The position numbers were made by a program, and so were the translations under genes. Shown here in pieces: positions 26,798-39,184 of a stretch of DNA of 64,000 nucleotides. The stretch is from an uncultured delta proteobacterium. Lineage in GTDB: Bacteria; Myxococcota; Myxococcia; Myxococcales; Myxococcaceae. The stretch covers positions 32,001 through 96,000 of the forward strand of contig CAVZMH010000019.1 in the NCBI GenBank assembly GCA_963776345.1, in the 5' to 3' direction. Under the pieces are notes generated by a model. That model ran no database searches and was not told the DNA's origin. It worked only from the letters and a program-made list of their open reading frames with translations. Positions within the stretch are counted from its first letter, which is position 1. The number at the start of each line of letters is the position of its first letter.

Positions 26798-26867
26798 CAT
26801 GCCCCCCGCCGAGCTGCTCCTCCCCCCGGGGCGGCCGCTCATCACCCGAATCAGGAGTCACTCCCAC

Positions 26868-27539
26868 ATGAAGAAGCTGCACAAGGGCTTCACGCTCATC
26901 GAGCTGATGATCGTGGTCGCCATCATCGGAATCCTCGCCGCCCTCGCCATCCCCAACTTCATCCGCTTCCAGGCTCGCTCGAAGCAGAGCGAAGTGAAGG
27001 CGAACCTCAAGTCCCTCTTCACCGCCGAGCGCTCCTACTACCAGGAGCACGACACCTACTCCGAGTGCATCCGGAAGATCGGGTTCAACCCGGAGCGCGG
27101 CAATCGCTACCACTACGTCGTCAACAACACTCTGAACAACGAAAACTGCAACACTAACGAGTTCCGGGACAACGCCGCCGGCATCACCGCCAGCACCGAT
27201 GGCGCCGTCCGGGCCGATACCTTCAAGTTTGGCACCGGCGCGGGCATCACCGCGGCGAACGGCGCAGTTGCAGTGCTGTATGCCCCCATCGCCCCCTTTG
27301 GCACCGCGATCGTTGCTGTCGGCAACCTGGTGGGCGTGAGCCCGGCCACTCCTGATGCGAACGGCTCGTTCGGTGGCGCGGCTCAGGGAGACATCGACAG
27401 CGACCTCCAAGTCGACCTCTGGTACATCTCCAGCCTGTCGAGCACCACCGCTGGCATCTGCCCGCTGCTGGCTGGCATCGACCAGAACGCTCCTGGTGGC
27501 GAGCCGAAGAACACCTACAACGACGTGAACTGCCCGTAG
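26868..27539 (+). CDS. pilA: Type IVa major pilin, copy 1 (223 aa)
   Basis: [49 protein letters not shown] class III signal with E5, myxobacterial PERGNRY motif, 4 Cys. Confidence 0.95.
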
Positions 27540-27645: not shown

Positions 27646-28323
27646 ATGAATCCACGCCACAGAGGCTTCACGCTCATCGAGTTGATGATCGTCGTGGCGG
27701 TGATCGCTCTTCTTGCCGCGCTGGCGATTCCCAACTTCATCCGCTTCCAGGCGCGGTCGAAGCAGGCCGAGGTCAAGGCGAATCTCAAGGCGGTCTTCAC
27801 TGCCGAGCGGTCCTACTTCCAGGAGCACTCCTGCTACACCAGCTGCACGAAGAAGGTGGGGTTCGCTCCGGAGCGGGGTAACCGGTATCGGTATTCTCTC
27901 AACGTGATCACCCGAGGCGACGAGACCTGCAACACGACCGAGAACAGGTCGACGGCTGCAGGCATCAGCCTGGGGACCGATGGCGACATCCTGGCCGACA
28001 CCTTCAAGCATGGGACCGGACCAGGGATCACCGCCGCCAACGGCCCCAAGCCCGCCCCCCTGTACGTCGCGACTCAGCCGTCGGGAACCTCCATCGTCGT
28101 GCAGAGCGACCTGGTAGGAGTCGTACCCGCCTTCGCTGACTCTGCCGGCTCCTTCGGGGTGGCCGCGCAAGGCGACATCGACACCGACCTCAACCTGGAC
28201 CTCTGGTACGTTTCCAGCGTCTCCTCGACCACCACCGGCGTGTGCCCCGTCCTCGTGGGCATCGGCCAGCAGGTTCCTGGTGGAGAGCCAAAGAACACCT
28301 ACAATGATGTCGACTGCCCGTGA
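27646..28323 (+). CDS. Second pilA-like type IVa pilin (225 aa)
   Basis: [42 protein letters not shown]. Collinear with copy 1 through to [15 protein letters not shown]. Confidence 0.92.
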   Translation: MNPRHRGFTLIELMIVVAVIALLAALAIPNFIRFQARSKQAEVKANLKAVFTAERSYFQEHSCYTSCTKKVGFAPERGNRYRYSLNVITRGDETCNTTENRSTAAGISLGTDGDILADTFKHGTGPGITAANGPKPAPLYVATQPSGTSIVVQSDLVGVVPAFADSAGSFGVAAQGDIDTDLNLDLWYVSSVSSTTTGVCPVLVGIGQQVPGGEPKNTYNDVDCP

Positions 28324-28375
28324 GCTGAGGACCGGTCCAGGAGCGCCTGGCCTGGTCGCCCTTTCGACGAGACAC

Positions 28376-29269
28376 ATGCGACGGAACGTGGCGATGGCGG
28401 CGAGCATCATTGGGATCGGACTCCTGCTCGGGATCAGCTACGCGAGCGGCCGCTATGCCGACCTACGACCCGTCCGCAGCGATCTGGTCATCGCCCGGGA
28501 ACTGATCTACCTGCCCAGCCCGACGACCGCGCGAGTGATGTCCCTCGGGTTCGGGCAACTGCTCGCGGACTGGTACTGGGTGCGTGCGCAGCAGTACTTC
28601 ACCGAGCCGGCGCAGGAGCTGAACCAGTACCGCTCCCTCGGAGATTTTCTCGACGTCGTCGTCGGTCTCGATCCGGACTTCGAGTACGTCTACAAGTTTG
28701 CGGGGATCTCGATTCCGTACGACACCGGCCGTCTGCGATACGCCAACACCGAACGAGCGATCGGCTTTCTCCAGCGAGGTGTGGCGCGCTTCCCCCAGAA
28801 CTGGGAGATGCGTCTGTATCTCGGGTTCTACCTGCTCAACTTCCGAGGCGACTCGGCAGGTGCCGCCGAGCAGTTCGCCCTCGCTGCACCCATCCCCGGT
28901 GCGCCACAGTACCTGAAGCGGTTCGCCGCCCGGCTGTTCTCGGTCAGCGGCGAGGTCGAGCGGGCGAAGGCGTTCACCGAGCAGATGCTTTCCATCACCG
29001 ACGACCCGGACGAGCGGGCGCGGCTCGAGAATCGGCTCAGGGAGATCGAGATCGAAGGGCGATTCCGCGAGGTGGAAGCGGCCGCGGAGCGCTTCAGGAC
29101 CGAGCACGGGCGCTGGCCGGTCGGGCTCGAGGAGCTTGCCGCGGTCTACCTCCTTCCTCCCTTGCCAGCCCAGGCCCGTCTGGAGAACGGGACCGTCACC
29201 GCTCCCTCGGTCAAGCGGCTGGTGGTCTACGAGCACCCGAAGGAAGCACCGATGCGAGCAACCCAATGA
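28376..29269 (+). CDS. pilG: PilG-like accessory protein (N-terminal TM, TPR-like periplasmic domain)
   Basis: ATG at 28376. SLGFGQLLADWYWVRAQQYF, LDPDF, FPQNW. Sits between pilA and the ABC ATPase, as myxobacterial pilG does. Confidence 0.7.
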   Translation: MRRNVAMAASIIGIGLLLGISYASGRYADLRPVRSDLVIARELIYLPSPTTARVMSLGFGQLLADWYWVRAQQYFTEPAQELNQYRSLGDFLDVVVGLDPDFEYVYKFAGISIPYDTGRLRYANTERAIGFLQRGVARFPQNWEMRLYLGFYLLNFRGDSAGAAEQFALAAPIPGAPQYLKRFAARLFSVSGEVERAKAFTEQMLSITDDPDERARLENRLREIEIEGRFREVEAAAERFRTEHGRWPVGLEELAAVYLLPPLPAQARLENGTVTAPSVKRLVVYEHPKEAPMRATQ

Positions 29270-30198
29270 GCAATGCCATCGATCTTCAAAATCTCGAGAA
29301 GAACTTCACCCTGAGCCTACGCCTCGGACGGCGGCGGGCCCTGGACGGGCTGTCGCTTTCGGTGCGGCCCGGTGAGATCTACGGCTTCCTCGGACCGAAT
29401 GGCGCGGGGAAGACGACCTCGATCAAGATCCTCGTCTCGCTCCTGCGGCAGGACAGTGGCCTGGCGACCGTGTTCGGCGAGGATCCGATGCGCAAGGAGG
29501 CCCGGAGGTTGATCGGGTACTTGCCCGAATCGCCGGTCTTCTACGATCAGCTGACCGGTCGGGAGTTTCTGACCTTCTGCGGAAAGCTGTGCGGGCTTCG
29601 CGGGCGCGCCCTCACAGAACGTTCCGATCGGCTGCTGGAGCAGGTGGGGCTCGCCCACGCCGGGGACCTCCACATTCGCCGCTACTCCAAGGGGATGAAC
29701 CAGCGGGTGGGGATCGCGCAGGCGCTCCTCCACGATCCTCAGCTGGTCATCCTCGACGAGCCGATGAGCGGCCTGGATCCCATCGGGCGCGCCGAGGTGC
29801 GGGACCTGATCCTCGAGCTGAAGAAGCGAGGGAAGACGGTCTTCTTCTCCACGCACATCATCCCCGACGTGGAGATGATCTGCGATCGGATCGGCCTCAT
29901 CAACCACGGGCGGATGGTCGCCGAGGGGAGCGTGAGCCAGCTGCTCGACTCCAGCGAGGCGCGTCCGATCGAGGTGATCGTCGAGAACGTCACCGAGGCA
30001 CTCGACAGCGCGCTGGCCTCCGAGGTCTCCAGCACCGGTGGCCAGCGGCTCTACCTGGTCAATTCAAACGAGGCGCTCGCTCGCTTCGTCTCCGACGTGC
30101 TCCAGCGTCGCGGCCGGCTGGTGTCGGTGACCCCCCGCCGCGAGGGGCTGGAGAACCTGGTGGTTCGTCTCCTGGAGCAGGATCGCGCCGCAGCCTGA
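29266..30198 (+). CDS. pilH: ABC transporter ATP-binding protein
   Basis: GPNGAGKTT, YSKGMNQR, LDEPMSGLDP, FSTH. Synteny. Confidence 0.85.
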   Translation: MSNAIDLQNLEKNFTLSLRLGRRRALDGLSLSVRPGEIYGFLGPNGAGKTTSIKILVSLLRQDSGLATVFGEDPMRKEARRLIGYLPESPVFYDQLTGREFLTFCGKLCGLRGRALTERSDRLLEQVGLAHAGDLHIRRYSKGMNQRVGIAQALLHDPQLVILDEPMSGLDPIGRAEVRDLILELKKRGKTVFFSTHIIPDVEMICDRIGLINHGRMVAEGSVSQLLDSSEARPIEVIVENVTEALDSALASEVSSTGGQRLYLVNSNEALARFVSDVLQRRGRLVSVTPRREGLENLVVRLLEQDRAAA

Positions 30199-30205
30199 GC
30201 TCGCC

Positions 30206-30967
30206 ATGAACGTCCTGACCATCGCTGCTCAGACCTTCACCGAGGCCCGCCGGAACCGGGTCTTCTACTCGCTCTTCCTCTTCGCGCTGGTGGTGGTGCT
30301 CAGCTCGGTGATCTTCACCGAGGTCACTGCCACCACCGTGGACCGGATGCTGAAGGACACCGGGCTGGCGGCGATCAATGTCTTTGCCCTGGCCCTGACC
30401 ATCTTTGCCGGGGTGGGGATCATCAACCGGGAGATCGACCGCCGCAGCATCTACACGGTGTTGGCGAAACCAGTGAGCCGCCTGAGCTACGTCGTCGGCA
30501 AGTACCTGGGGCTGGTGTCGATCATCCTCGCCACCTCCTCGCTGATGTTCCTGGGTTTGCTGGCGGTGATGAAAGGCTACCGGACGGAGATCCACACCGG
30601 CATCTTCCTGGGCTTCCTCGGGATACTGCTGGAGGTGCTGGTGCTGGGAGCGGTGGCGGTGCTCTGCTCCACCTTCACCACCTCGTTCATCTCCGCCTTC
30701 ATCTGCACCGCGGTGTACCTCTCCGGCCACCTCTCCACGGAGTTCCTACGGGTGGTCCGCAAGTCGGCCGGGGCCCGGCGGGTGGTGGGGGAGACGATCT
30801 ATTACCTGGTGCCGAACCTCGAGCGTTTCAATTTCAAGTACCACGCCACCTACGACGTGTCGGTGCCTTCGACCACGCTCCTGGCAGTGGTGCTCTTCGG
30901 CCTGGCGTACGCCAGCGCCGCCCTCCTCGGGGCGGTGGTCGTTTTCCAGCGGCGCGACTTCCGCTGA
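30206..30967 (+). CDS. pilI: ABC-2 type permease
   Basis: TFTEARRNR, REIDRRSIYTVLAKPVSR..VGKYLG, C-terminal FQRRDF, multiple TMs. Confidence 0.85.
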   Translation: MNVLTIAAQTFTEARRNRVFYSLFLFALVVVLSSVIFTEVTATTVDRMLKDTGLAAINVFALALTIFAGVGIINREIDRRSIYTVLAKPVSRLSYVVGKYLGLVSIILATSSLMFLGLLAVMKGYRTEIHTGIFLGFLGILLEVLVLGAVAVLCSTFTTSFISAFICTAVYLSGHLSTEFLRVVRKSAGARRVVGETIYYLVPNLERFNFKYHATYDVSVPSTTLLAVVLFGLAYASAALLGAVVVFQRRDFR

Positions 30968-30986: not shown

Positions 30987-32402
30987 ATGCCCTTCACCGA
31001 GCCGGCGTTCCTTTTCTACTTCCTGCCCGCCACGCTGGCCGCGTACCACCTCGTGCCGGCGCGGCTGCGGAACCTGGTCCTCACCCTGGCCAGCTTCCTC
31101 TTCTACGCCGTCGGGGAGTGGGGGTTCGTCGGCTGGCTCCTTGGATCGACCGCGGCCACCTATGCGCTGGCCCGGGGCATCGACGCCTGGCGGGGGAGGC
31201 GCGCGGCGGCGCTCCTGCTCGCGCTCGGGTTGGTCATCGACCTGCTGCTCCTCGGGTACTTCAAGTACGCCGGCTTCGGCCTCCGCACGCTCGCGCGGCT
31301 GGGGCTGAGCCACGGAGCCATCCCCGAGATCCTGCTCCCGCTGGGGATCAGCTTCTTCACCTTCCACAAGATCTCGTACAAGGTCGACGTCTGGCGGGGC
31401 ACGGCGGAGGTCCGCAAGGATCCGCTCGACCTCCTGCTCTACATCCTCTTCTTTCCCCAGCTCATCGCCGGGCCGATCGTCCGCTACCACGACATCGCCG
31501 GCGAGCTCGTCTCGCGGCAGGTGCAGGCCGAGACGTTCGCCTCCGGGGTCCGGCGATTCGCGGTGGGCTTCGCCAAGAAGATGCTGGTCGCCAACACGGT
31601 GGCCACGGTGGCGGACCAGGTGTTCGGCACCGACCCGGCGCGGCTCGGGATGGCGAGCGCGTGGCTCGGGCTGGCCTGCTACACGCTGCAGATCTACTTC
31701 GACTTCTCGGGCTACTCGGACATGGCCATCGGCCTGGCTCGGATGTTCGGCTTCCACTTCCTGGAGAACTTCGATCACCCGTACACCTCGCGCTCGGTGA
31801 CCGAGTTCTGGCGGCGCTGGCACATCTCGCTCTCGCGCTGGTTCCGGGATTACCTTTACCTGCCGCTGGGGGGGAACCGCGTCTCACCGCTCAGGACCTA
31901 CCTGAACCTCTCGGTGGTCTTCCTGCTCTGCGGCCTCTGGCACGGCGCGAGCTGGACCTTCGTGGTCTGGGGCGCGTTTCACGGCCTCCTCTTGGTCACT
32001 GAACGCGCCGGGTGGAGCCGGGTCCTGGCGCGGCTGCCGCCCGCGGCGCAGCATCTGCAGACGCTCCTCTGGGTGATGGTCGGCTGGGTGTTCTTCCGGG
32101 CCCCCTCCGTGGGCCACGCGCTGCTCTTCCTCCGTGCCCTGGTGGGCGGCAGCGCCGGCGTGGCTCCGCTCGAGGCAGTGTCGATGGCCACGCCCGCCGT
32201 GGTGCTCGCCCTGACCGCGGGGATCATCGGCTCGACGCCGGTGGTGGCCGAGCTCGCCGGCCGCTGGCGCGCGACGACGGGCGAGCGGGGAGCGCCCGCG
32301 TGGACGCTGGCCCGCGAGTGCGCGCTGGTGGGGCTGCTGCTGCTCTCCACGATGCAGGTGGCCTCCGGCACCTACAACCCGTTCATCTACTTCCGGTTCT
32401 GA
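30987..32402 (+). CDS. MBOAT family O-acyltransferase (AlgI/PatA/DltB-like)
   Basis: PLGISFFTF, FFPQLIAGPIVR, QIYFDFSGYSDMAIG, ENF..PY, EFWRRWHISLS, GLWHGA, NPFIYFRF. Confidence 0.93.
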   Translation: MPFTEPAFLFYFLPATLAAYHLVPARLRNLVLTLASFLFYAVGEWGFVGWLLGSTAATYALARGIDAWRGRRAAALLLALGLVIDLLLLGYFKYAGFGLRTLARLGLSHGAIPEILLPLGISFFTFHKISYKVDVWRGTAEVRKDPLDLLLYILFFPQLIAGPIVRYHDIAGELVSRQVQAETFASGVRRFAVGFAKKMLVANTVATVADQVFGTDPARLGMASAWLGLACYTLQIYFDFSGYSDMAIGLARMFGFHFLENFDHPYTSRSVTEFWRRWHISLSRWFRDYLYLPLGGNRVSPLRTYLNLSVVFLLCGLWHGASWTFVVWGAFHGLLLVTERAGWSRVLARLPPAAQHLQTLLWVMVGWVFFRAPSVGHALLFLRALVGGSAGVAPLEAVSMATPAVVLALTAGIIGSTPVVAELAGRWRATTGERGAPAWTLARECALVGLLLLSTMQVASGTYNPFIYFRF

Positions 32403-33571
32403 TGACCTCCGCCCGGTCCGCCTCCGTCGCTCGCCCCAAGGCGCTGGCCCCACCGGGCCGGGGGCTGGTGCTCGCCTTCCTGGTGCTCATCTCCCTTCCG
32501 GCGCTGGTGGGTCTGGGAGGGCAGAGTGCCCGGGACCGGGAGCGCGCCGGCGAGCTTCCGGTGCGCCCGCCGTCGCTGACCCATGCGGGCGGCGTGGGCC
32601 AGTACCTCCAGGACATCCAAGTCTACCTCCGTGCCACCTTCGGGCTGCGGCAGACGCTGATTCACTCGGACGCCCGGCTGAAGCGCGCCCTCGGCCTGAG
32701 CGAGAGCGTCGGCTCGGCGGTGACGCACGGCCGTGACGGCTGGCTCTTCTACCGGGTGCACCGCGGAAGGCAGGGCGTTCGCCCCGAGCTTCCGTTCACT
32801 CCCGAGGAGCTCGATCGGTGGGTGGGGACCTTCACCGCCCAGCACCGGCGGGCGACGGAGCTCGGGATCCGCTACCTGCTCGTGGTCGCGCCCGACAAGG
32901 AGACCATCTACCCCGACTTCCTCCCCGCGGGGCTCCCCCCGGCGGAGCCGGTCTCCCGGCTCGACGTGCTTGCCGGCCGCCTCCGCGCCGAGGGCGTTCC
33001 AGTGGTCGACCTCCGGCCCGCGCTCCGCGAGGCGCGCGGTGCCTCCTCTCCGTTCTCCCGCTGGCCGCTGTACCACCGCACCGACGACCACTGGAACGAG
33101 CTCGGGGCCCTGATCGCCGCGCGCCCCGTCCTCGCCGAGCTGCGCGCGCGGTTCCCCGGAGTCCGCGTCCCGCTCGACGACGAGGTGGAGGTCACGACCG
33201 CGGCGACCGCCGGCGGCGACCTCGCCCGGATGGAAGGGGTCCAGGAGATCTCCAGCGAGCTCCAGGTCCTGGCGCGGCTGCGTTCCGCGGCCTGCGTGTT
33301 CGATCCCTTCGGCGGGCCGAGGCCCACCGGCCCCGAGGTGCCGCTCCAGGCCGCTCAGGTCCTGGAGTGCCCGGGCGCCCCAATCCTCCGTGGGCTCGTC
33401 CTGCACGACTCGATGATGGTGGCCATGCTCCCGGTGCTCGCGCCCGTGTTCCAGCGCTCGGTCTGGCGGCTCACCCCGGTCCTCGACCCGGCACTGCTCG
33501 CGGCGGAGAAGCCGGACGTCGTCGTGGTGGAGCTGGTGGAGCGCACGCTCTGGGAGGGGTTGGCCCAGTGA
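32402..33571 (+). CDS. AlgJ/AlgX-like SGNH O-acetyltransferase
   Basis: ATG overlaps the MBOAT stop. N-terminal TM, GRDGWLFY, VAPDKETIYP, RTDDHWNELGA, HDS, KPDVVVVELVER. Confidence 0.88.
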   Translation: MTSARSASVARPKALAPPGRGLVLAFLVLISLPALVGLGGQSARDRERAGELPVRPPSLTHAGGVGQYLQDIQVYLRATFGLRQTLIHSDARLKRALGLSESVGSAVTHGRDGWLFYRVHRGRQGVRPELPFTPEELDRWVGTFTAQHRRATELGIRYLLVVAPDKETIYPDFLPAGLPPAEPVSRLDVLAGRLRAEGVPVVDLRPALREARGASSPFSRWPLYHRTDDHWNELGALIAARPVLAELRARFPGVRVPLDDEVEVTTAATAGGDLARMEGVQEISSELQVLARLRSAACVFDPFGGPRPTGPEVPLQAAQVLECPGAPILRGLVLHDSMMVAMLPVLAPVFQRSVWRLTPVLDPALLAAEKPDVVVVELVERTLWEGLAQ

Positions 33572-34518
33572 CCCCCGACGCCGTCTTCCTCCCCGCCCTC
33601 GGGGTGCTCGGCCTGGTGGTGGGGAGCTTCCTCAACGTGGTCATCGCCCGCGTCCCCCACGGCCAGTCCATCGTCCGTCCGGGCTCGCGTTGCCCCCGGT
33701 GCGGTCACGCGCTGGCCTGGTACGAGAACGTGCCGCTCCTGTCCTGGGCCGCGCTCCGGGGCCGCTGCTGGAGCTGCAGGGCCCCCATCTCCATCCGCTA
33801 TCCGGCGGTGGAGCTCTTGACCGGGCTCCTCTTCGTGGCCGCCGGCTGGGCGTTCGGCCCGAGCTGGGCGCTCCTCCGGGCCCTGGTCCTCATCGGCTTC
33901 CTGGTGCCGCTCGCGCTCATCGACCTCGAGCACTGGATCGTCCCGGTGGGCCTCACCGTGCTCGGGACGGCGGCGGGCCTGTTGAGCGCGATCCCGCTCG
34001 GTCGGCCCACTCTGCGAGACTGCGCGATCGGCGCCGGGGCCGGCTTCGTCGTCTTCTGGGCGCTGGAGCGGGTGTCCCTCCTGATGGTGGTGAAGCTCAT
34101 CCGACCGCTGCTCCGGGCGCTCCGGGCCCTCCTCGCCCGCGCGTCCGGGCGCGAGCCACCGGCGCCCGAGCCGGACCCCACCGAGGCGCTCGGAGCGGGG
34201 GACAAGTGGCTCCTCCTCCTGGTCGGGAGCTTCCTCGGATGGCGGCCGCTGTTCGGGCTCCTCCTGCTCAGCGCGCTCCAGGGCGCGGTGGTGGGCACCA
34301 CCTTGCTCCTCCTCCACGGCCGGGCGGGCTCGGAGCCGCCGCCCCCGGGCTCGCCGGCGACCGAGGATGGCTGGGCGCCCGAGGCCACCGCGCTCCCCTT
34401 CGGGCCGTGGATTGCGCTGGCCGCGCTCGAGCTCGCGCTCGCCGGGCCCTGGCTCTCGGAGGCCTTCCCCTCGCCGCTGGTCGCGCTGGTGACCGGACAG
34501 CCGTGGATACCGCAGTGA
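33568..34518 (+). CDS. pilD: Prepilin peptidase/N-methyltransferase
   Basis: GTG overlaps the previous stop. GSFLNVVIAR.P, SRCPRC...ENVP..S...GRCWSC, YPAVE, IDLEH, GAGD, PFGPWI. Confidence 0.93.
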   Translation: MTPDAVFLPALGVLGLVVGSFLNVVIARVPHGQSIVRPGSRCPRCGHALAWYENVPLLSWAALRGRCWSCRAPISIRYPAVELLTGLLFVAAGWAFGPSWALLRALVLIGFLVPLALIDLEHWIVPVGLTVLGTAAGLLSAIPLGRPTLRDCAIGAGAGFVVFWALERVSLLMVVKLIRPLLRALRALLARASGREPPAPEPDPTEALGAGDKWLLLLVGSFLGWRPLFGLLLLSALQGAVVGTTLLLLHGRAGSEPPPPGSPATEDGWAPEATALPFGPWIALAALELALAGPWLSEAFPSPLVALVTGQPWIPQ

Positions 34519-36590
34519 ACGTGACCGAGGCACAGCCCGGGCGCGAGCCGGCCGACCCCGAGGCGACGGCCTCCGCGGCCACGGGGTCCTGGGCGCGCGT
34601 CGCGCTGCTCGCCGCCTCGCTGGTCGCCGGCGTGGTGGCCGCGCTCCTCGCGCTGATGCCGATGAACGACCCGGACCTGTTCTGGCACCTGGCCGTGGGT
34701 CGCTACGTGACGGTGCACCACCGGCTGCCCACCACCAACCTCTGGTCGTTCACCGCGCCGGATCATCCGTTCCTCGCCAGCTCCTGGCTGTTCGACCTGC
34801 TCCTGGAGCGACTGAACGCGGCAGGGGGGCTGGTCGCCGTTCACCTGGCCACGGCCCTGGTGGTCGGTTCCTCCTTCGCCGTGCTGCTCCTCGCCGTGCG
34901 GAGCCGGGGGGCGAGCCTGCCGTGGGCCCTGGGCACGGTGGTCGCGCTCGCGTTCGGGGCCGAGGCCCGCTTCACCCCCCGGCCGCAGGTGTTCAGCTAC
35001 CTCTTGCTGTCGCTGCTCTCGCTGCTCCTGGTGCGCGACCGGGCGCGCCGGTCCTGGCGCGCGCTCGCGTGGGTGCCGGTCCTGCTCGTCGTCTGGGCGA
35101 ACCTCCATGCGGGGGTGGTGTTCGGGCTGGTGCTCGTGGGCTGCCACCTGGCGGACGAGCTGTGGGCGCGCCTCCCGGGACTTCCGGCCGCAGGCCGCCG
35201 CCGGCTGCTCCTGGGCTCGGCCGCCGCCGGCGCCGTCTGTCTCGGGGCGCTGCTCCTCAACCCCGGCGGCCCGGATCTGATCAGGTACGCGCTGTTCCAC
35301 GTCTCCGAGGTGGGCTCGGTGGTGAGGCTCGGCGAGTTCAACAGCCCGAGCCTGCACGACCGGCCGCTGTTCTGGGTCGTCCTCGTCGCGACGCCGCTGC
35401 TCCTCCTCGTCTCCCGCCGGGAGGCGCGCCTCGCCGAGTGGCTCGGGTGGCTGGCCTTCGGCGCGCTCGGCTGCCGGGCGATGCGGCTCATCCCCGAGTT
35501 CTTCCTGGTGGTGGGTCCGTCGGTGGGCTGGGCGGCGGAGCGCGCCTTCCAGAGGATCGCCGCCGGACGGGTAAGGGCGGGGGTGGCCAGGCTGGTCCCG
35601 GTGCTCCTGCCGCTCGGCTCCCTGGCCATCCTCCCGTATCCGGCGCTGCACCTCCTCCGGCGCATCCAGCCGGGCCTCGACCCGTACCGGAACCCGGTGC
35701 GCGCGGTCGCGCAGGCCGAGCGGTGGGGGCTCTCGGGCCGAGTCTTCGCCGGCTGGGACGCGACCGGGCTCGTGGAGTGGGCCTTGCCGCAGGCACAGGT
35801 CCAGGTGGATCCCCGGCTCCTGGCCTATCCGCCCGAGGTCTTCCACGCGCTCGAGCAGGCCGAGGACTCGCCGCAGGCCTTCGACGCCTACGTCGACCGC
35901 TGGGACATCGGCTGGGCGCTCCGGACGCAGCAGCGGCTGCGCTTCACCGGGGCGGGCCTGTTCGACCCGAGGCGCTGGGCGGTGGTGTTCTGGGACGAGG
36001 GTGGGCAGATCCTCCTGCGACGGGACGTGCCCCGGTTCGCCGAGCTGATCCGAGAGCAGGAGCTCCAGGAGTTCCTCCCCGCGACGCCGGTGGTCGAGGC
36101 CTGGCGGACGTTCCGCGGCCCCCGCCGCGCGCGGTGGCTCGAGGAGGCGCGGCGGCTCGCCGCCACCTCTCCCCGGCTGGTGGACGCGCACGCCGCGCTC
36201 TGCCTCGAGGCGGCCCGCACCGGCGAGCTCGCCCCGGCGGAGCAGGAGTGCTCCCTGGCCGCGGCGGCGGCCGACGAGCGGTACTGGCTGCACCCCGCGC
36301 CGGGCGGTCTGCGGTCGCTGAGCGCGGCCATCGCCCAGCTGGTGCTCGCCGGCGAGATCACCCGCCGGGGCACGCAGGAGCCCGTGGAGCCTCTCCTGGC
36401 GCGGGCCGTTGCGCTCGCCCCGGAGAGCGCGGACGTCTGGGCCGGGCAGGGCGCGCTGCTGCTGGAGCGGAGGGACCCGGCCGGGGCGGTTGTCGCGTTT
36501 CGCCGCGCGCTGGCCATCGACCCGGCGCACCGGCCGGCGAGCGAGGGGCTGGCCCGGGCGGAGAGGCTGGCCACGGGGGGTGGCCGGTGA
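34515..36590 (+). CDS. Polytopic membrane protein, GT-C glycosyltransferase-like, with C-terminal TPR
   Basis: GTG overlaps the pilD stop. TM1 then DPDLFWHLAVGR acidic loop, RPQVFS, WANLHAG, about 10 or more TMs, a soluble domain and a TPR (ARAVALAPESADVW...FRRALAIDP). The GT-C assignment is inference. Confidence 0.7.
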   Translation: MNVTEAQPGREPADPEATASAATGSWARVALLAASLVAGVVAALLALMPMNDPDLFWHLAVGRYVTVHHRLPTTNLWSFTAPDHPFLASSWLFDLLLERLNAAGGLVAVHLATALVVGSSFAVLLLAVRSRGASLPWALGTVVALAFGAEARFTPRPQVFSYLLLSLLSLLLVRDRARRSWRALAWVPVLLVVWANLHAGVVFGLVLVGCHLADELWARLPGLPAAGRRRLLLGSAAAGAVCLGALLLNPGGPDLIRYALFHVSEVGSVVRLGEFNSPSLHDRPLFWVVLVATPLLLLVSRREARLAEWLGWLAFGALGCRAMRLIPEFFLVVGPSVGWAAERAFQRIAAGRVRAGVARLVPVLLPLGSLAILPYPALHLLRRIQPGLDPYRNPVRAVAQAERWGLSGRVFAGWDATGLVEWALPQAQVQVDPRLLAYPPEVFHALEQAEDSPQAFDAYVDRWDIGWALRTQQRLRFTGAGLFDPRRWAVVFWDEGGQILLRRDVPRFAELIREQELQEFLPATPVVEAWRTFRGPRRARWLEEARRLAATSPRLVDAHAALCLEAARTGELAPAEQECSLAAAAADERYWLHPAPGGLRSLSAAIAQLVLAGEITRRGTQEPVEPLLARAVALAPESADVWAGQGALLLERRDPAGAVVAFRRALAIDPAHRPASEGLARAERLATGGGR

Positions 36591-37708
36591 AGCTGCGCAT
36601 CGCCGCGATCGCCTTCCTCCTCGCGGTGCTCGCCACCGGCATCACCTGGCTGTCCTTCCAGCCGGTGGTGCTGCGGCTGGTGGAGGCGCTCCGGATCGCC
36701 GCGCCGGCGGGGAGCCCGTCGCGCCACGTGCTGGAGACGGCCCAGGCGTTCCTGCCGCTCTACCTCGGGCTCGATCTCCTGATCCTGGTGCTGGTGGCCT
36801 TCGGAGTCCTCTACTTCACCGTGGTGCGGCCGCTGGGCGCGGTGGAGCGCGAGATGCAGGGCCTCGAGCGGCTGGACTGGGCGCCCGAGGAGAAGGGCGG
36901 GGGGCCGCTCCTCAGCCGCTTCCAGGCCAGCCTGCGGCGGACCGCCACCGCGCTTCAGGCCGAGCGCGCGCTCACCCGGCGCCAGCTCGAGGACCTCGCC
37001 GCGGCCAACGAGCGGCTCACCCGCGCCCAGGCCGAGCTGGTCGCCAGCGAGCGCCTGGCCACGGTGGGCCGGCTCGCCGCCGGCGTGGCGCACGAGATCG
37101 GCAACCCGCTCTCGGGGGTGCTGGGCTGGCTGAGCGTGGCCCAGGCCCGGAGCGCCGGGGACGCCGAGCTCTCCGGGTACCTCCGGGAGATGGAGGCCGA
37201 GGTCCGGCGCATCGACGGCATCGTCCGGAGCCTCCTCGACCTCGGCCGGCCGGTGCGCACCCAGGTGGGCCCGGTCCCGGTGGCCGACCTGGTCCGGACC
37301 GCGGCGCGGCTGGTGGGCTCGGGCCCCGAGTTCCGGGAAATCACCGTGGAGACCGAGATCGACCCGGGGCTGGTGGCCCTGGCCGACCCGGGGCCCCTCA
37401 GCCAGGTGGTCATCAACCTCCTGATCAACGCCGCGCAGGCCATCGGCGGGCCCGGGACCATCCGGGTGGCGGGGGCGGCCGACGGGGGTCGGGTGCGCAT
37501 CGACGTCCTGGACTCCGGTCCGGGGGTGCCGCCCGAGCTGCGCGAGCGGATCTTCGAGCCGTTCTTCACCACCAAGTCGGGCGGGAAGGGCACGGGGCTC
37601 GGGCTCGCGGTGAGCCAGCACCTGATGCGGGTGATGTCGGGAGACGTCGCCGTGGGGGAGTCACCCCAGGGCGGAGGAAAGTTCACCGTCAGCTTGCCGG
37701 CCGCCTGA
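36587..37708 (+). CDS. pilS2: Sensor histidine kinase (PilS2-like)
   Basis: GTG overlaps the previous stop. 2 TMs, HAMP-like region, AHEIGNPL, NLLINA, FEPFFTTK..GKGTGLGL. Synteny. Confidence 0.8.
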   Translation: MKLRIAAIAFLLAVLATGITWLSFQPVVLRLVEALRIAAPAGSPSRHVLETAQAFLPLYLGLDLLILVLVAFGVLYFTVVRPLGAVEREMQGLERLDWAPEEKGGGPLLSRFQASLRRTATALQAERALTRRQLEDLAAANERLTRAQAELVASERLATVGRLAAGVAHEIGNPLSGVLGWLSVAQARSAGDAELSGYLREMEAEVRRIDGIVRSLLDLGRPVRTQVGPVPVADLVRTAARLVGSGPEFREITVETEIDPGLVALADPGPLSQVVINLLINAAQAIGGPGTIRVAGAADGGRVRIDVLDSGPGVPPELRERIFEPFFTTKSGGKGTGLGLAVSQHLMRVMSGDVAVGESPQGGGKFTVSLPAA

Positions 37709-37767: not shown

Positions 37768-39184
37768 ATGTCCATCCTTCGCTCGGTCCTCGTCGCGGAC
37801 GACGAGGCGTCGCTCCGCCACGTGCTCACGCTGGTCCTCCAGGGCCACGGCTACGAGGTGCGGGCGGTGAGCAACGGCGAGGAGGCTCTGGCCGAGCTCG
37901 AGGCGCGCGACTACGACGCGGTCATCTCCGACGTGCGGATGCCGCGGGTGGACGGGCTCACCGTCCTCAAGCGTGCCCTGGCGCGGCAGCCGGACCTCAC
38001 CTTCGTGGTGATGAGCGCCTACGGGCAGCCGGACGCGGCGCTCGAGGCCGTGGCCGCAGGCGCCTTCGACTACGTCTCCAAGCCCTTCAAGCCCGAGGAG
38101 GTGGTCCTCGTCCTGAAGAAGGCCGAGGAGCGGCGGCGGCTGGTGACCGAGAACCGCCGGCTCCGGCGCTCGGGCGCGGACCGGGGGCCGCTGGACCGGA
38201 TCGTCGGCAGCTCCGAGGCGGTGAAGCAGCTCCACAAGCAGATCCTCAAGGTCGCCCCGGTCTCCACCACGGTGCTGATCACCGGCGAGAGCGGGACCGG
38301 CAAGGAGCTGGTGGCCCGCGCGCTCCACGAGCTCTCTCCCCGTGCGGCCATGCCCTTCGTCCCGGTGAACTGCGGGGCCATCCCGCCGGGCCTGCTGGAG
38401 TCCGAGCTCTTCGGCCACGCCCGGGGCGCGTTCACCGACGCCCGCACCGCCAAGCGCGGCCTCTTCGCCGAGGCCGACGGGGGCACGCTCCTGCTGGACG
38501 AGGCCGGCGAGCTTCCGCCGGCGGCGCAGATCAAGCTGCTCCGCTTCCTCCAGGAGGGCGAGATCCGCGCGGTGGGCGAGAACCGCTCGGAGCGGGTGGA
38601 CGTCCGGGTGCTCGCCGCGACGCACCGCGACCTCGGCAAGCTGGTGGAGCGGAGCGAGTTCCGCGAGGATCTCTACTACCGGCTGAACGTGGTGAACCTC
38701 CACATCCCACCGCTGCGGGCGCGCCGGGAGGACGTGCTGCAGCTGGCGCGGGCGTTCCTCCTGCGCTTCAACCGGGAGCTCAACCGCCAGGTCCCGGTCA
38801 CCGGGTTCGAGCCGGGAGCCGAGGAGCTGCTCTCGTCCTACTGCCTGGCCCGGGAACGTGCGCGAGCTGGAGAACGCCATCGAGCGCGCGGTGCTGCTGG
38901 CGGAGGGGAATCTGGTGACGGTCCAGAACCTCCCGGAGCGGATCTGGTCCACGGCCCGGGGCCCCGATGCCCCGGCGCCGGCGGCGGGCGGCGAGACCCA
39001 GGATGACCTCTCGCTCAAGCGGGCCATGCGCTCGCTGGAGGAGCGCTACATCCGTGCAGCACTCCGTCGCACCCGCGGCAACCGGACCCGGGCCTCGGAA
39101 CTGCTGGAGATCAGCCACCGGGCGCTCCTCTACAAGATCAAGGAGTACGGCATCGACGCGGACGCCGAGGGCGAGCTGGGATGA
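37768..39184 (+). CDS. pilR2: Sigma54-dependent response regulator (PilR2-like); +1 frameshift near 38842 (probable sequencing error, otherwise a pseudogene)
   Basis: ATG at 37768. REC domain, GESGTGKE, GAFTDA. TAC-T-GCC-TGG-CCC-GGG-AAC: removing one base restores YAWPGNVRELEN and joins the HTH-bearing ORF 38858..39184. Confidence 0.85.

Follow-up and report, generated by a model that had tools for sequence, protein, structure and literature searches.

What are genes for an acyl relay and for a putative glycosyltransferase doing inside a type IV pilus gene cluster? The question is raised by a 64,000-nucleotide stretch of a Myxococcaceae genome (GCA_963776345.1, contig CAVZMH010000019.1; G000:C19:32001-96000, hereafter the window), taken from an assembly of 5.1 Mb that is 98% complete. 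Its pil cluster runs pilB-T-C-S-R, pilA1, pilA2, pilG-H-I, MBOAT, SGNH, pilD, GT-C, pilS2, pilR2, pilM-Q, the pil genes being named after the M. xanthus gene order. An MBOAT-family acyltransferase gene and an AlgJ/AlgX-like SGNH gene stand between pilI and pilD, and a gene for a membrane protein with tetratricopeptide repeats (TPR), here called GT-C, lies between pilD and pilS2; on this, coordinates, Pfam matches and the gene junctions agree with an original prediction made from the sequence alone. That prediction saw the three genes as a single coupled module that glycosylates pilin and O-acetylates the glycan, or pilin itself. We find instead that MBOAT-SGNH and GT-C are two separable cassettes with independent gain and loss. 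Our tentative explanation is that both tailor the pilus surface, GT-C by glycosylating pilin and the MBOAT-SGNH pair, as predicted, by acetylating a pilin-borne glycan.

The idea of a single module failed on gene distribution. Among 13 genomes of the genus, SGNH stands before pilD in five (G000, G002, G003, G004 and G007; G numbers denote genomes and L numbers loci), pilI lies directly before pilD in four, and the remaining four are unreadable at this interval. In G003 a YfhO-like gene is inserted between SGNH and pilD. Fourteen MBOAT/SGNH loci have the gene after pilD visible, and in only three of these (G000, G003 and L065) is it GT-C; the other 11 are without it. Furthermore, four loci visible from pilA to pilS2 (G004, G007, L070 and L071) contain MBOAT-SGNH and no glycosyltransferase, and the GT-C homologues of three other genera (G169, G207 and G210) are accompanied by no MBOAT-SGNH in the pil stretch fetched.

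Sequence divergence within the genus points the same way. The window SGNH shares 89% identity with its counterpart in L061, a locus without GT-C, but only 54% with the one in G003, despite 92% identity between the GT-C proteins of the window and G003. L061 is about 97% identical to the window over pilS2-pilR2, yet has no GT-C. One public run yields a contig on which pilD, in a divergent allele, runs straight into pilS2 (4 differences in 989 bases, 99.6% identity in pilS2), along with other contigs that cover GT-C at 98-99%. At its 5' end, the window pilD shows 77-78% DNA identity with that of G003; further along pilD and through GT-C the value is mostly 89-99%. Synonymous divergence (dS) from G003 is 0.14 for GT-C, 0.30 for pilD and 0.31 for pilS2. 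The window thus looks like a mosaic, in which GT-C appears to have been exchanged separately, together with the 3' half of pilD. An obligate three-gene pathway, in which GT-C adds a sugar and MBOAT-SGNH acetylates that same sugar, is very unlikely in the face of these data, although all three genes are coupled in G000, G003 and L065, and a cassette outside the pil genes (L100) pairs a distant GT-C relative with an MBOAT and two AlgX-type genes. The G003 and L065 proteins also group together, both for SGNH (100/99) and for MBOAT (99/97); this branch may have had all three genes side by side over a long period, which points in the opposite direction to separate exchange.

If the cassettes are separate, each has to be placed by its own evidence. 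For the 691-amino-acid product of GT-C, sequence-profile searches of Pfam, NCBIfam and the PDB gave matches to the TPR tail only (weak in Pfam) and none to the membrane part. Its structure model (confidence score pLDDT 93) was matched by Foldseek to STT3 (expect value, E, 3e-7) and PglB (E 1e-5), and also to AglB, AftA and DPY19. VIA-align gave a Z of 19.7 with Pmt4 (root-mean-square deviation 3.9, 332 residues aligned), 19.6 with OST-B (4.1, 464 aligned) and 18.7 with PglB (4.4, 440 aligned), and the structural matches span the membrane and periplasmic domains (residues about 21-506). In the family alignment Asp54 occurs in 41 of 42 rows and Glu/Asp274 in all 42; Asp54 is placed after the first helix (17-46), the position of the catalytic Asp of GT-C enzymes (PMC11127046; this and the other sources cited are drawn on in excerpt). 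The 'GT-C-like' label of the original prediction is backed by model, Foldseek and VIA-align alike and, judged by this modelled fold, the protein is a GT-C enzyme of an unnamed family. The motif WWDYG is the signature of the STT3/PglB N-oligosaccharyltransferases. WWD was found neither in the window protein nor in any of the 42 rows of alignment A4, and occurs somewhere in 7 of the 37 rows of alignment A1. Neither DDX nor YX6PFX7P, the motifs of the Pseudomonas enzyme TfpW, is present in the window GT-C, which has DPD in place of DD.

Matches to GT-C were found in 25 of 208 genomes of the taxonomic family. The six best non-self matches are 35-94% identical, and five of them lie inside pil operons: after pilD in G003, before pilD in G011, between pilR and pilH in G169, and between pilI and a pilA in G207 and G210. 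The sixth (G150) sits behind an unrelated gene on a 3.4-kb contig. A pilus role is less easily reconciled with 26 more distant loci of the GT-C family that lie outside type IVa pil operons (17 and 9 from two draws, with ten weaker matching genomes left out), of which three are order-level matches with 34-36% identity. Two others of the 26 have contexts worth recording: in G036 a family member ends a Tad/Flp pilus operon (L094:8418-9878), and in L100 (G133:C72:76000-95000) a distant relative lies with an MBOAT gene, two AlgX-type genes, a GDSL protein, a GT2 and an epimerase, with no pil linkage. As a whole the family is thus broad, and its closest branch is pil-linked at several positions.

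What occupies the same region in other genera was surveyed at pilD loci outside the genus: 27 came from a draw of relatives (20 in pil clusters) and 20 were hand-picked for spread from 194 matches in the family (19 in pil clusters), giving 39 clusters. Genes of PMT, PMT_2, YfhO or AglB_L1 type are carried by 16 of the 39, a count without a control interval (14 recognized by Pfam, some below the curated cut-off, and two by BLAST to such genes). The MBOAT-SGNH pair was found in none of the 39, some of these loci being cut short or poorly called. In G018 the interval between pilI and pilD (L040:9483-17038) encodes a TPR membrane protein, a hexapeptide transferase, a DegT aminotransferase, an oxidoreductase, a GT2 and a PMT_2 protein, a complete-looking glycosylation cassette that would comprise a whole sugar pathway. 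In G208 an AT3 acyltransferase (PF01757), unrelated to MBOAT-SGNH, lies between pilR2 and pilM (L136:1998-3062). These repeated insertions of unrelated GT-C genes are, in our view, the strongest argument that the region may host pilin modification. Because five of the six closest homologues are pil-linked and 16 of the 39 clusters carry unrelated GT-C genes, the window GT-C likely acts on pilin; we regard it as a predicted pilin glycosyltransferase, which probably transfers a sugar to pilin. Genes of other kinds were also seen in or near pil clusters, namely those for multi-pass membrane proteins with spermidine-synthase-like domains (L126:9750-12893 in G117; L128:2-3669 in G114) and, between pilI and pilD of G020, a MazE-like antitoxin gene (L033:9518-9907).

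For the MBOAT-SGNH pair, a relay chemistry predicted from motifs, triad and family is well supported. The WHG of the MBOAT aligns with DltB and makes His319 the putative catalytic residue. Its C-terminus, FIYFRF, is identical in pil-linked homologues and matches FxYxxF, an acyl-shuttle motif; in PatA it is the Tyr of this motif that becomes acetylated (PMC12148441). The SGNH protein has an N-terminal membrane anchor, is nearest by profile and fold to AlgJ (4o8v) and B. cereus PatB1 (5v8d), and has a conserved triad (D228 in 78, and H230 and S337 in all, of 79 aligned homologues). Within genome G000, SGNH and GT-C have one match each, and MBOAT has one further weak partial match.

On what would this relay act? 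Within the genus it is bound to the pil operon. A metagenome scan gave 16 SGNH loci, several of them near-identical to each other; 12 of the 15 at 52% identity or more touch a pil gene, two are too short, one consists of a 3' fragment preceded by an unrelated gene, and the sixteenth (24% identity) has no pil link. In all five genus genomes with SGNH, the copy in the pil operon is the sole match. The pair stays between pilI and pilD, and coupled to pilD, across SGNH identities down to 54%. Furthermore, SGNH identities track those of pilG (rho 0.95, 15 pairs) and pilA (0.73, 10 pairs), as against rho 0.06, -0.01 and -0.38 for pilM, pilN and pilO.

Several points weigh against a pilus acceptor for this pair. 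Among 23 MBOATs, the eight with a pil link fall into a single clade (support 100), and the pil link is a single event with no independent replicates. The family is rare (12 matches in 368 genomes of the class and 19 in 401 of the phylum). None of 18 homologous MBOAT/SGNH loci outside the genus contains pil structural genes, generic kinase, regulator and ABC matches having been filtered out; five of them (L060, L098, L100, L106 and L107) sit among glycosyltransferase or sugar-nucleotide genes, three do not, and the remaining ten were annotated by tblastn only. The nearest characterized two-gene homologue, gp41/gp40 of Pseudomonas phage JBD44, acts on O-antigen, and the tracking of pilG and pilA is explicable by physical linkage alone, the pairs being few and non-independent, with several rows near-identical. 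One of the observations that the original prediction named as refuting it therefore holds outside the genus, where none of the 18 loci is pil-linked and at least five lie among glycosyltransferase genes; within the genus the pair is pil-linked. Because the pil link arose once and none of the 18 outside loci shares it, the putative acceptor of MBOAT-SGNH, a pilin-borne glycan, is less certain than that of GT-C.

The same points bear on a rival that keeps pilin as the substrate of GT-C but has MBOAT-SGNH O-acetylate an envelope glycan outside the pilus, most likely O-antigen and otherwise exopolysaccharide (EPS) or peptidoglycan, the pair having landed once and been carried along by pilA-pilGHI recombination. 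A single origin, outgroup pairs in glycosyltransferase clusters, a phage relative (39% and 26% identical) working on O-antigen and the lack of GT-C in most loci are all in line with it, and the structural neighbours AlgJ, PatB1 and AlgX act on polysaccharides (PMC12148441). In L032 and L159 (G006 and G008) strongly divergent pilA-pilGHI allele types (pilG 28% and pilI 33% in G006) lie beside conserved pilM (96-98%), and the block has therefore been exchanged as a unit within the genus. Against this rival stand the place that the pair has kept between pilI and pilD, with its coupling to pilD, through a divergence of SGNH to 54-60% identity, the single SGNH match in each of the five genomes, and the probable pilin-modifying genes in the same slot of other genera. 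We consider it somewhat unlikely. In favour of a pilus role, cellulose synthase or alginate export families (PF03552 and PF13372) were not found in five genus genomes including G000.

Another rival dispenses with the glycan: MBOAT-SGNH would place its acyl group on the pilin protein itself, at Ser/Thr or another side chain. The four loci that are complete from pilA to pilS2, with the pair and no glycosyltransferase, would suit it, as would the way in which SGNH divergence tracks pilG and pilA, and the tandem pilA genes of all five MBOAT-SGNH lineages in which this region can be seen. The two tandem pilA genes of the window went unmentioned in the original prediction. Single pilA genes occur in G009 and G006, both without MBOAT-SGNH; G001 (87% complete) has two pilA and no MBOAT-SGNH was found in it. 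However, tandem pilA is also present in other genera without the pair, the same genomes hold many other candidate glycosyltransferases, and every MBOAT-SGNH pair characterized in the excerpted sources acylates a polymer (for example alginate, cellulose, peptidoglycan, teichoic acid or a wall polysaccharide). Direct acylation is improbable on this evidence, and so is its wider form, in which the pair acylates pilin protein as one of many interchangeable cassettes (STT3-like GT-C, PMT/TMTC-like, YfhO-like, AglB-like and AT3) that would make the pil locus a pilus 'serotype' locus.

The pilins themselves were also compared. The acceptor sequon of N-oligosaccharyltransferases is D/E-x-N-x-S/T. Both genus genomes that carry GT-C have it in a pilin; it is also present in GT-C-less L070, and in 11 of 57 pilin rows overall, and was not found in the pilins seen for GT-C-bearing G169, G207 and G210. 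In both GT-C-bearing genus genomes, mature residues 156-160 of pilA1 read D-x-N-x-S, which is where the myxobacterial CPxC loop lies; the GT-C-less genus genomes have no such sequence there, with counter-examples elsewhere. Neither sequon nor Ser/Thr content separated GT-C-bearing from GT-C-less loci, and a complex prediction for SGNH with PilA yielded no answer (score 0.00).

We return to two independent accessory cassettes for the pilus surface as the explanation that we tentatively favour. In the periplasm, GT-C would transfer a sugar from a lipid carrier to pilin, gene context suggesting the acceptor. By family chemistry, the MBOAT would charge Tyr468 of its FIYFRF tail with the acyl group of acyl-CoA, and Ser337 of SGNH would take over this group and pass it to a hydroxyl (PMC12148441); the pair would thereby acetylate a pilin-borne glycan, an acceptor again suggested by gene context. 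In most MBOAT-SGNH loci the pil operon is without a glycosyltransferase, and the enzyme that attaches the acetylated glycan would therefore in most cases have to be encoded outside it. Candidates of PMT_2 type (7-11 matches) and Wzy_C type (2-8 matches) are present in all five genomes of either test; GtrA-type genes are likewise present in all five genomes tested for them and are non-discriminating. One PMT_2-type GT-C (G000:C16:751636-753942) was rejected as a universal partner, since it occurs in only 4 of 13 genus genomes and was not found in SGNH-bearing G007 and G002, which tells against the favoured explanation. It lies with GT2-like and methyltransferase-like genes (L162, G000:C16:749627-753942) and is about 41% identical to the pil-locus GT-Cs of G018 and G165. 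Strain-level presence or absence of the cassettes would fit phage-receptor variation. What survives of the original prediction is likely pilin glycosylation and, less certainly, O-acetylation of a pilin-borne glycan, in keeping with the GT-C fold, with the pil linkage of its closest homologues, with the GT-C genes that often fill the pilA-pilD slot in other Myxococcia, and with a pair that is predicted to be catalytically intact and is pil-linked in its own clade; glycosylation followed by acetylation in one coupled module does not survive.

The features concerned are listed in the table below. As the original prediction had it, the genes overlap: the MBOAT/SGNH junction is TGATG, and the SGNH/pilD, pilD/GT-C and GT-C/pilS2 junctions are GTGA, with a 19-nt gap between pilI and MBOAT. 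From these overlaps only, MBOAT-SGNH-pilD-GT-C-pilS2 may be co-transcribed; a scan for promoters and terminators gave no signal above shuffled controls. Third-position GC content is 0.92-0.97 in the three accessory genes, as in the pil genes, and the ratio of non-synonymous to synonymous divergence (dN/dS) against relatives is 0.18-0.52 for MBOAT, SGNH and GT-C; therefore, the three are real genes. The prediction was also right that the window holds no polysaccharide synthase or export gene, none being found among the 24 other called genes (Pfam, E<=0.001). The gene caller misses genes in low-GC or frameshifted loci, and tblastn was applied there. In pilR2 (37768-39184), one extra base near 38841-38843 produces a frameshift relative to L061 and to contigs of runs X2, X3 and X4, which may be either an assembly error or a strain mutation.

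Table. Features of the pil cluster in and around the accessory genes (window positions).
Feature	Position	Strand	Remarks
pilA1	26865..27539	+	major pilin, 216 aa mature; PF14245/PF07963; start = MKKLHK methionine; putative acceptor
pilA2	27646..28323	+	second tandem pilin, 67% identical to pilA1
pilG (TPR-like), pilH (ABC ATPase), pilI (ABC permease)	28307..30967	+	block tracked by SGNH divergence
pilI	30206-30967	+	
MBOAT	30987..32402	+	471 aa, AlgI/PatA type; PF03062 E 5.6e-32; His319, FIYFRF (Tyr468)
SGNH O-acyltransferase	32402..33571	+	389 aa, membrane-anchored, AlgJ/PatB1 type; PF16822 ALGX E 4.5e-24; Asp228-His230-Ser337
pilD prepilin peptidase	33568..34518	+	PF06750 + PF01478; 3' half apparently exchanged with GT-C
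GT-C-fold glycosyltransferase (predicted), unnamed family	34515..36590	+	691 aa; membrane domain, STT3-like periplasmic domain, TPR tail; Asp54, Glu274
pilS2 histidine kinase	36587..37708	+	downstream boundary

Pseudomonas and Neisseria are known to glycosylate pilin and to acetylate glycans; we found no such report for myxobacteria, in which pili power social motility. To judge by the 16 of 39 clusters, unrelated GT-C enzymes may commonly land in the pilA-pilD region, which in one genus also hosts an MBOAT-SGNH relay of a kind undescribed on pili. A GT-C family outside Pfam and NCBIfam coverage and the acyl relay can now be named as testable genes, and the relay bears on the unexplained pilGHI block, with which it co-varies. 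If our explanation is right, separately exchanged add-ons would be an undescribed way for myxobacteria to vary the pilus surface; if pilin were acylated directly, a protein acceptor would be a first for bacterial MBOAT-SGNH pairs.

How, finally, does the locus compare with known systems? The open papers searched, supplements excluded and in the excerpts available, describe no MBOAT-SGNH pair in a pil operon and no pilin glycosylation in Myxococcota, and the arrangement is undescribed as far as searched. Nor did they confirm glycosylation genes following pilA in Geobacter. In its excerpts, the paper on the M. xanthus pilus mentions no glycan, and its authors speculate that a surface Cys is modified (PMC11046646). 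With PatA/PatB, AlgI/AlgJ and B. cereus PatA1/PatB1, the window pair shares the MBOAT His, the FxYxxF tail and the SGNH fold and triad (PMC12148441); unlike them, it lies in a pil operon and is coupled to pilD. No synthase, AlgF, AlgX or esterase gene adjoins it, and the linked synthase and export genes and extra SGNH partners of AlgIJFX and WssFGHI were not found in the window. Neisseria PglI, an AT3-SGNH fusion, O-acetylates pilin glycan, and the excerpt of a review gives it as the sole glycoprotein case, with MBOAT systems only for alginate, cellulose, peptidoglycan and teichoic acid (PMC9558356); the window has an MBOAT and a separate SGNH instead.

The best full-length structural matches to the window GT-C, over membrane and periplasmic domains, are STT3/PglB/AglB, DPY19 and AftA/B, from which it differs by its 8-15% identity, the lack of WWD and an added TPR tail. 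PF04030, the DprE1-type family and here a proxy for a D-arabinofuranose (D-Araf) donor pathway (DprE1/DprE2), was not found in five genomes, other genes of that pathway not having been searched. TfpW is a pilin-glycosylating GT-C of Pseudomonas with a TPR tail (bioRxiv 10.1101/2020.04.19.049825), and glycosylation of Pseudomonas pilin acts against phages (PMC11841053). As far as the excerpts describe the P. aeruginosa enzyme, TfpW (646 amino acids) and the window GT-C (691) are both pil-linked, strain-variable accessory proteins, each with some 11 membrane helices and a TPR region at its C-terminus; the window protein differs in the motifs noted above and is not encoded directly after pilA. 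The two are likely analogous, not orthologous. The closest parallel to the pair is JBD44 gp41/gp40, likewise a stand-alone cassette of an MBOAT and an AlgJ-type SGNH, which acetylates O-antigen and so masks a phage receptor (bioRxiv 10.1101/2024.03.05.583538); it is phage-borne, whereas the window pair is chromosomal and lies in a pilus operon.

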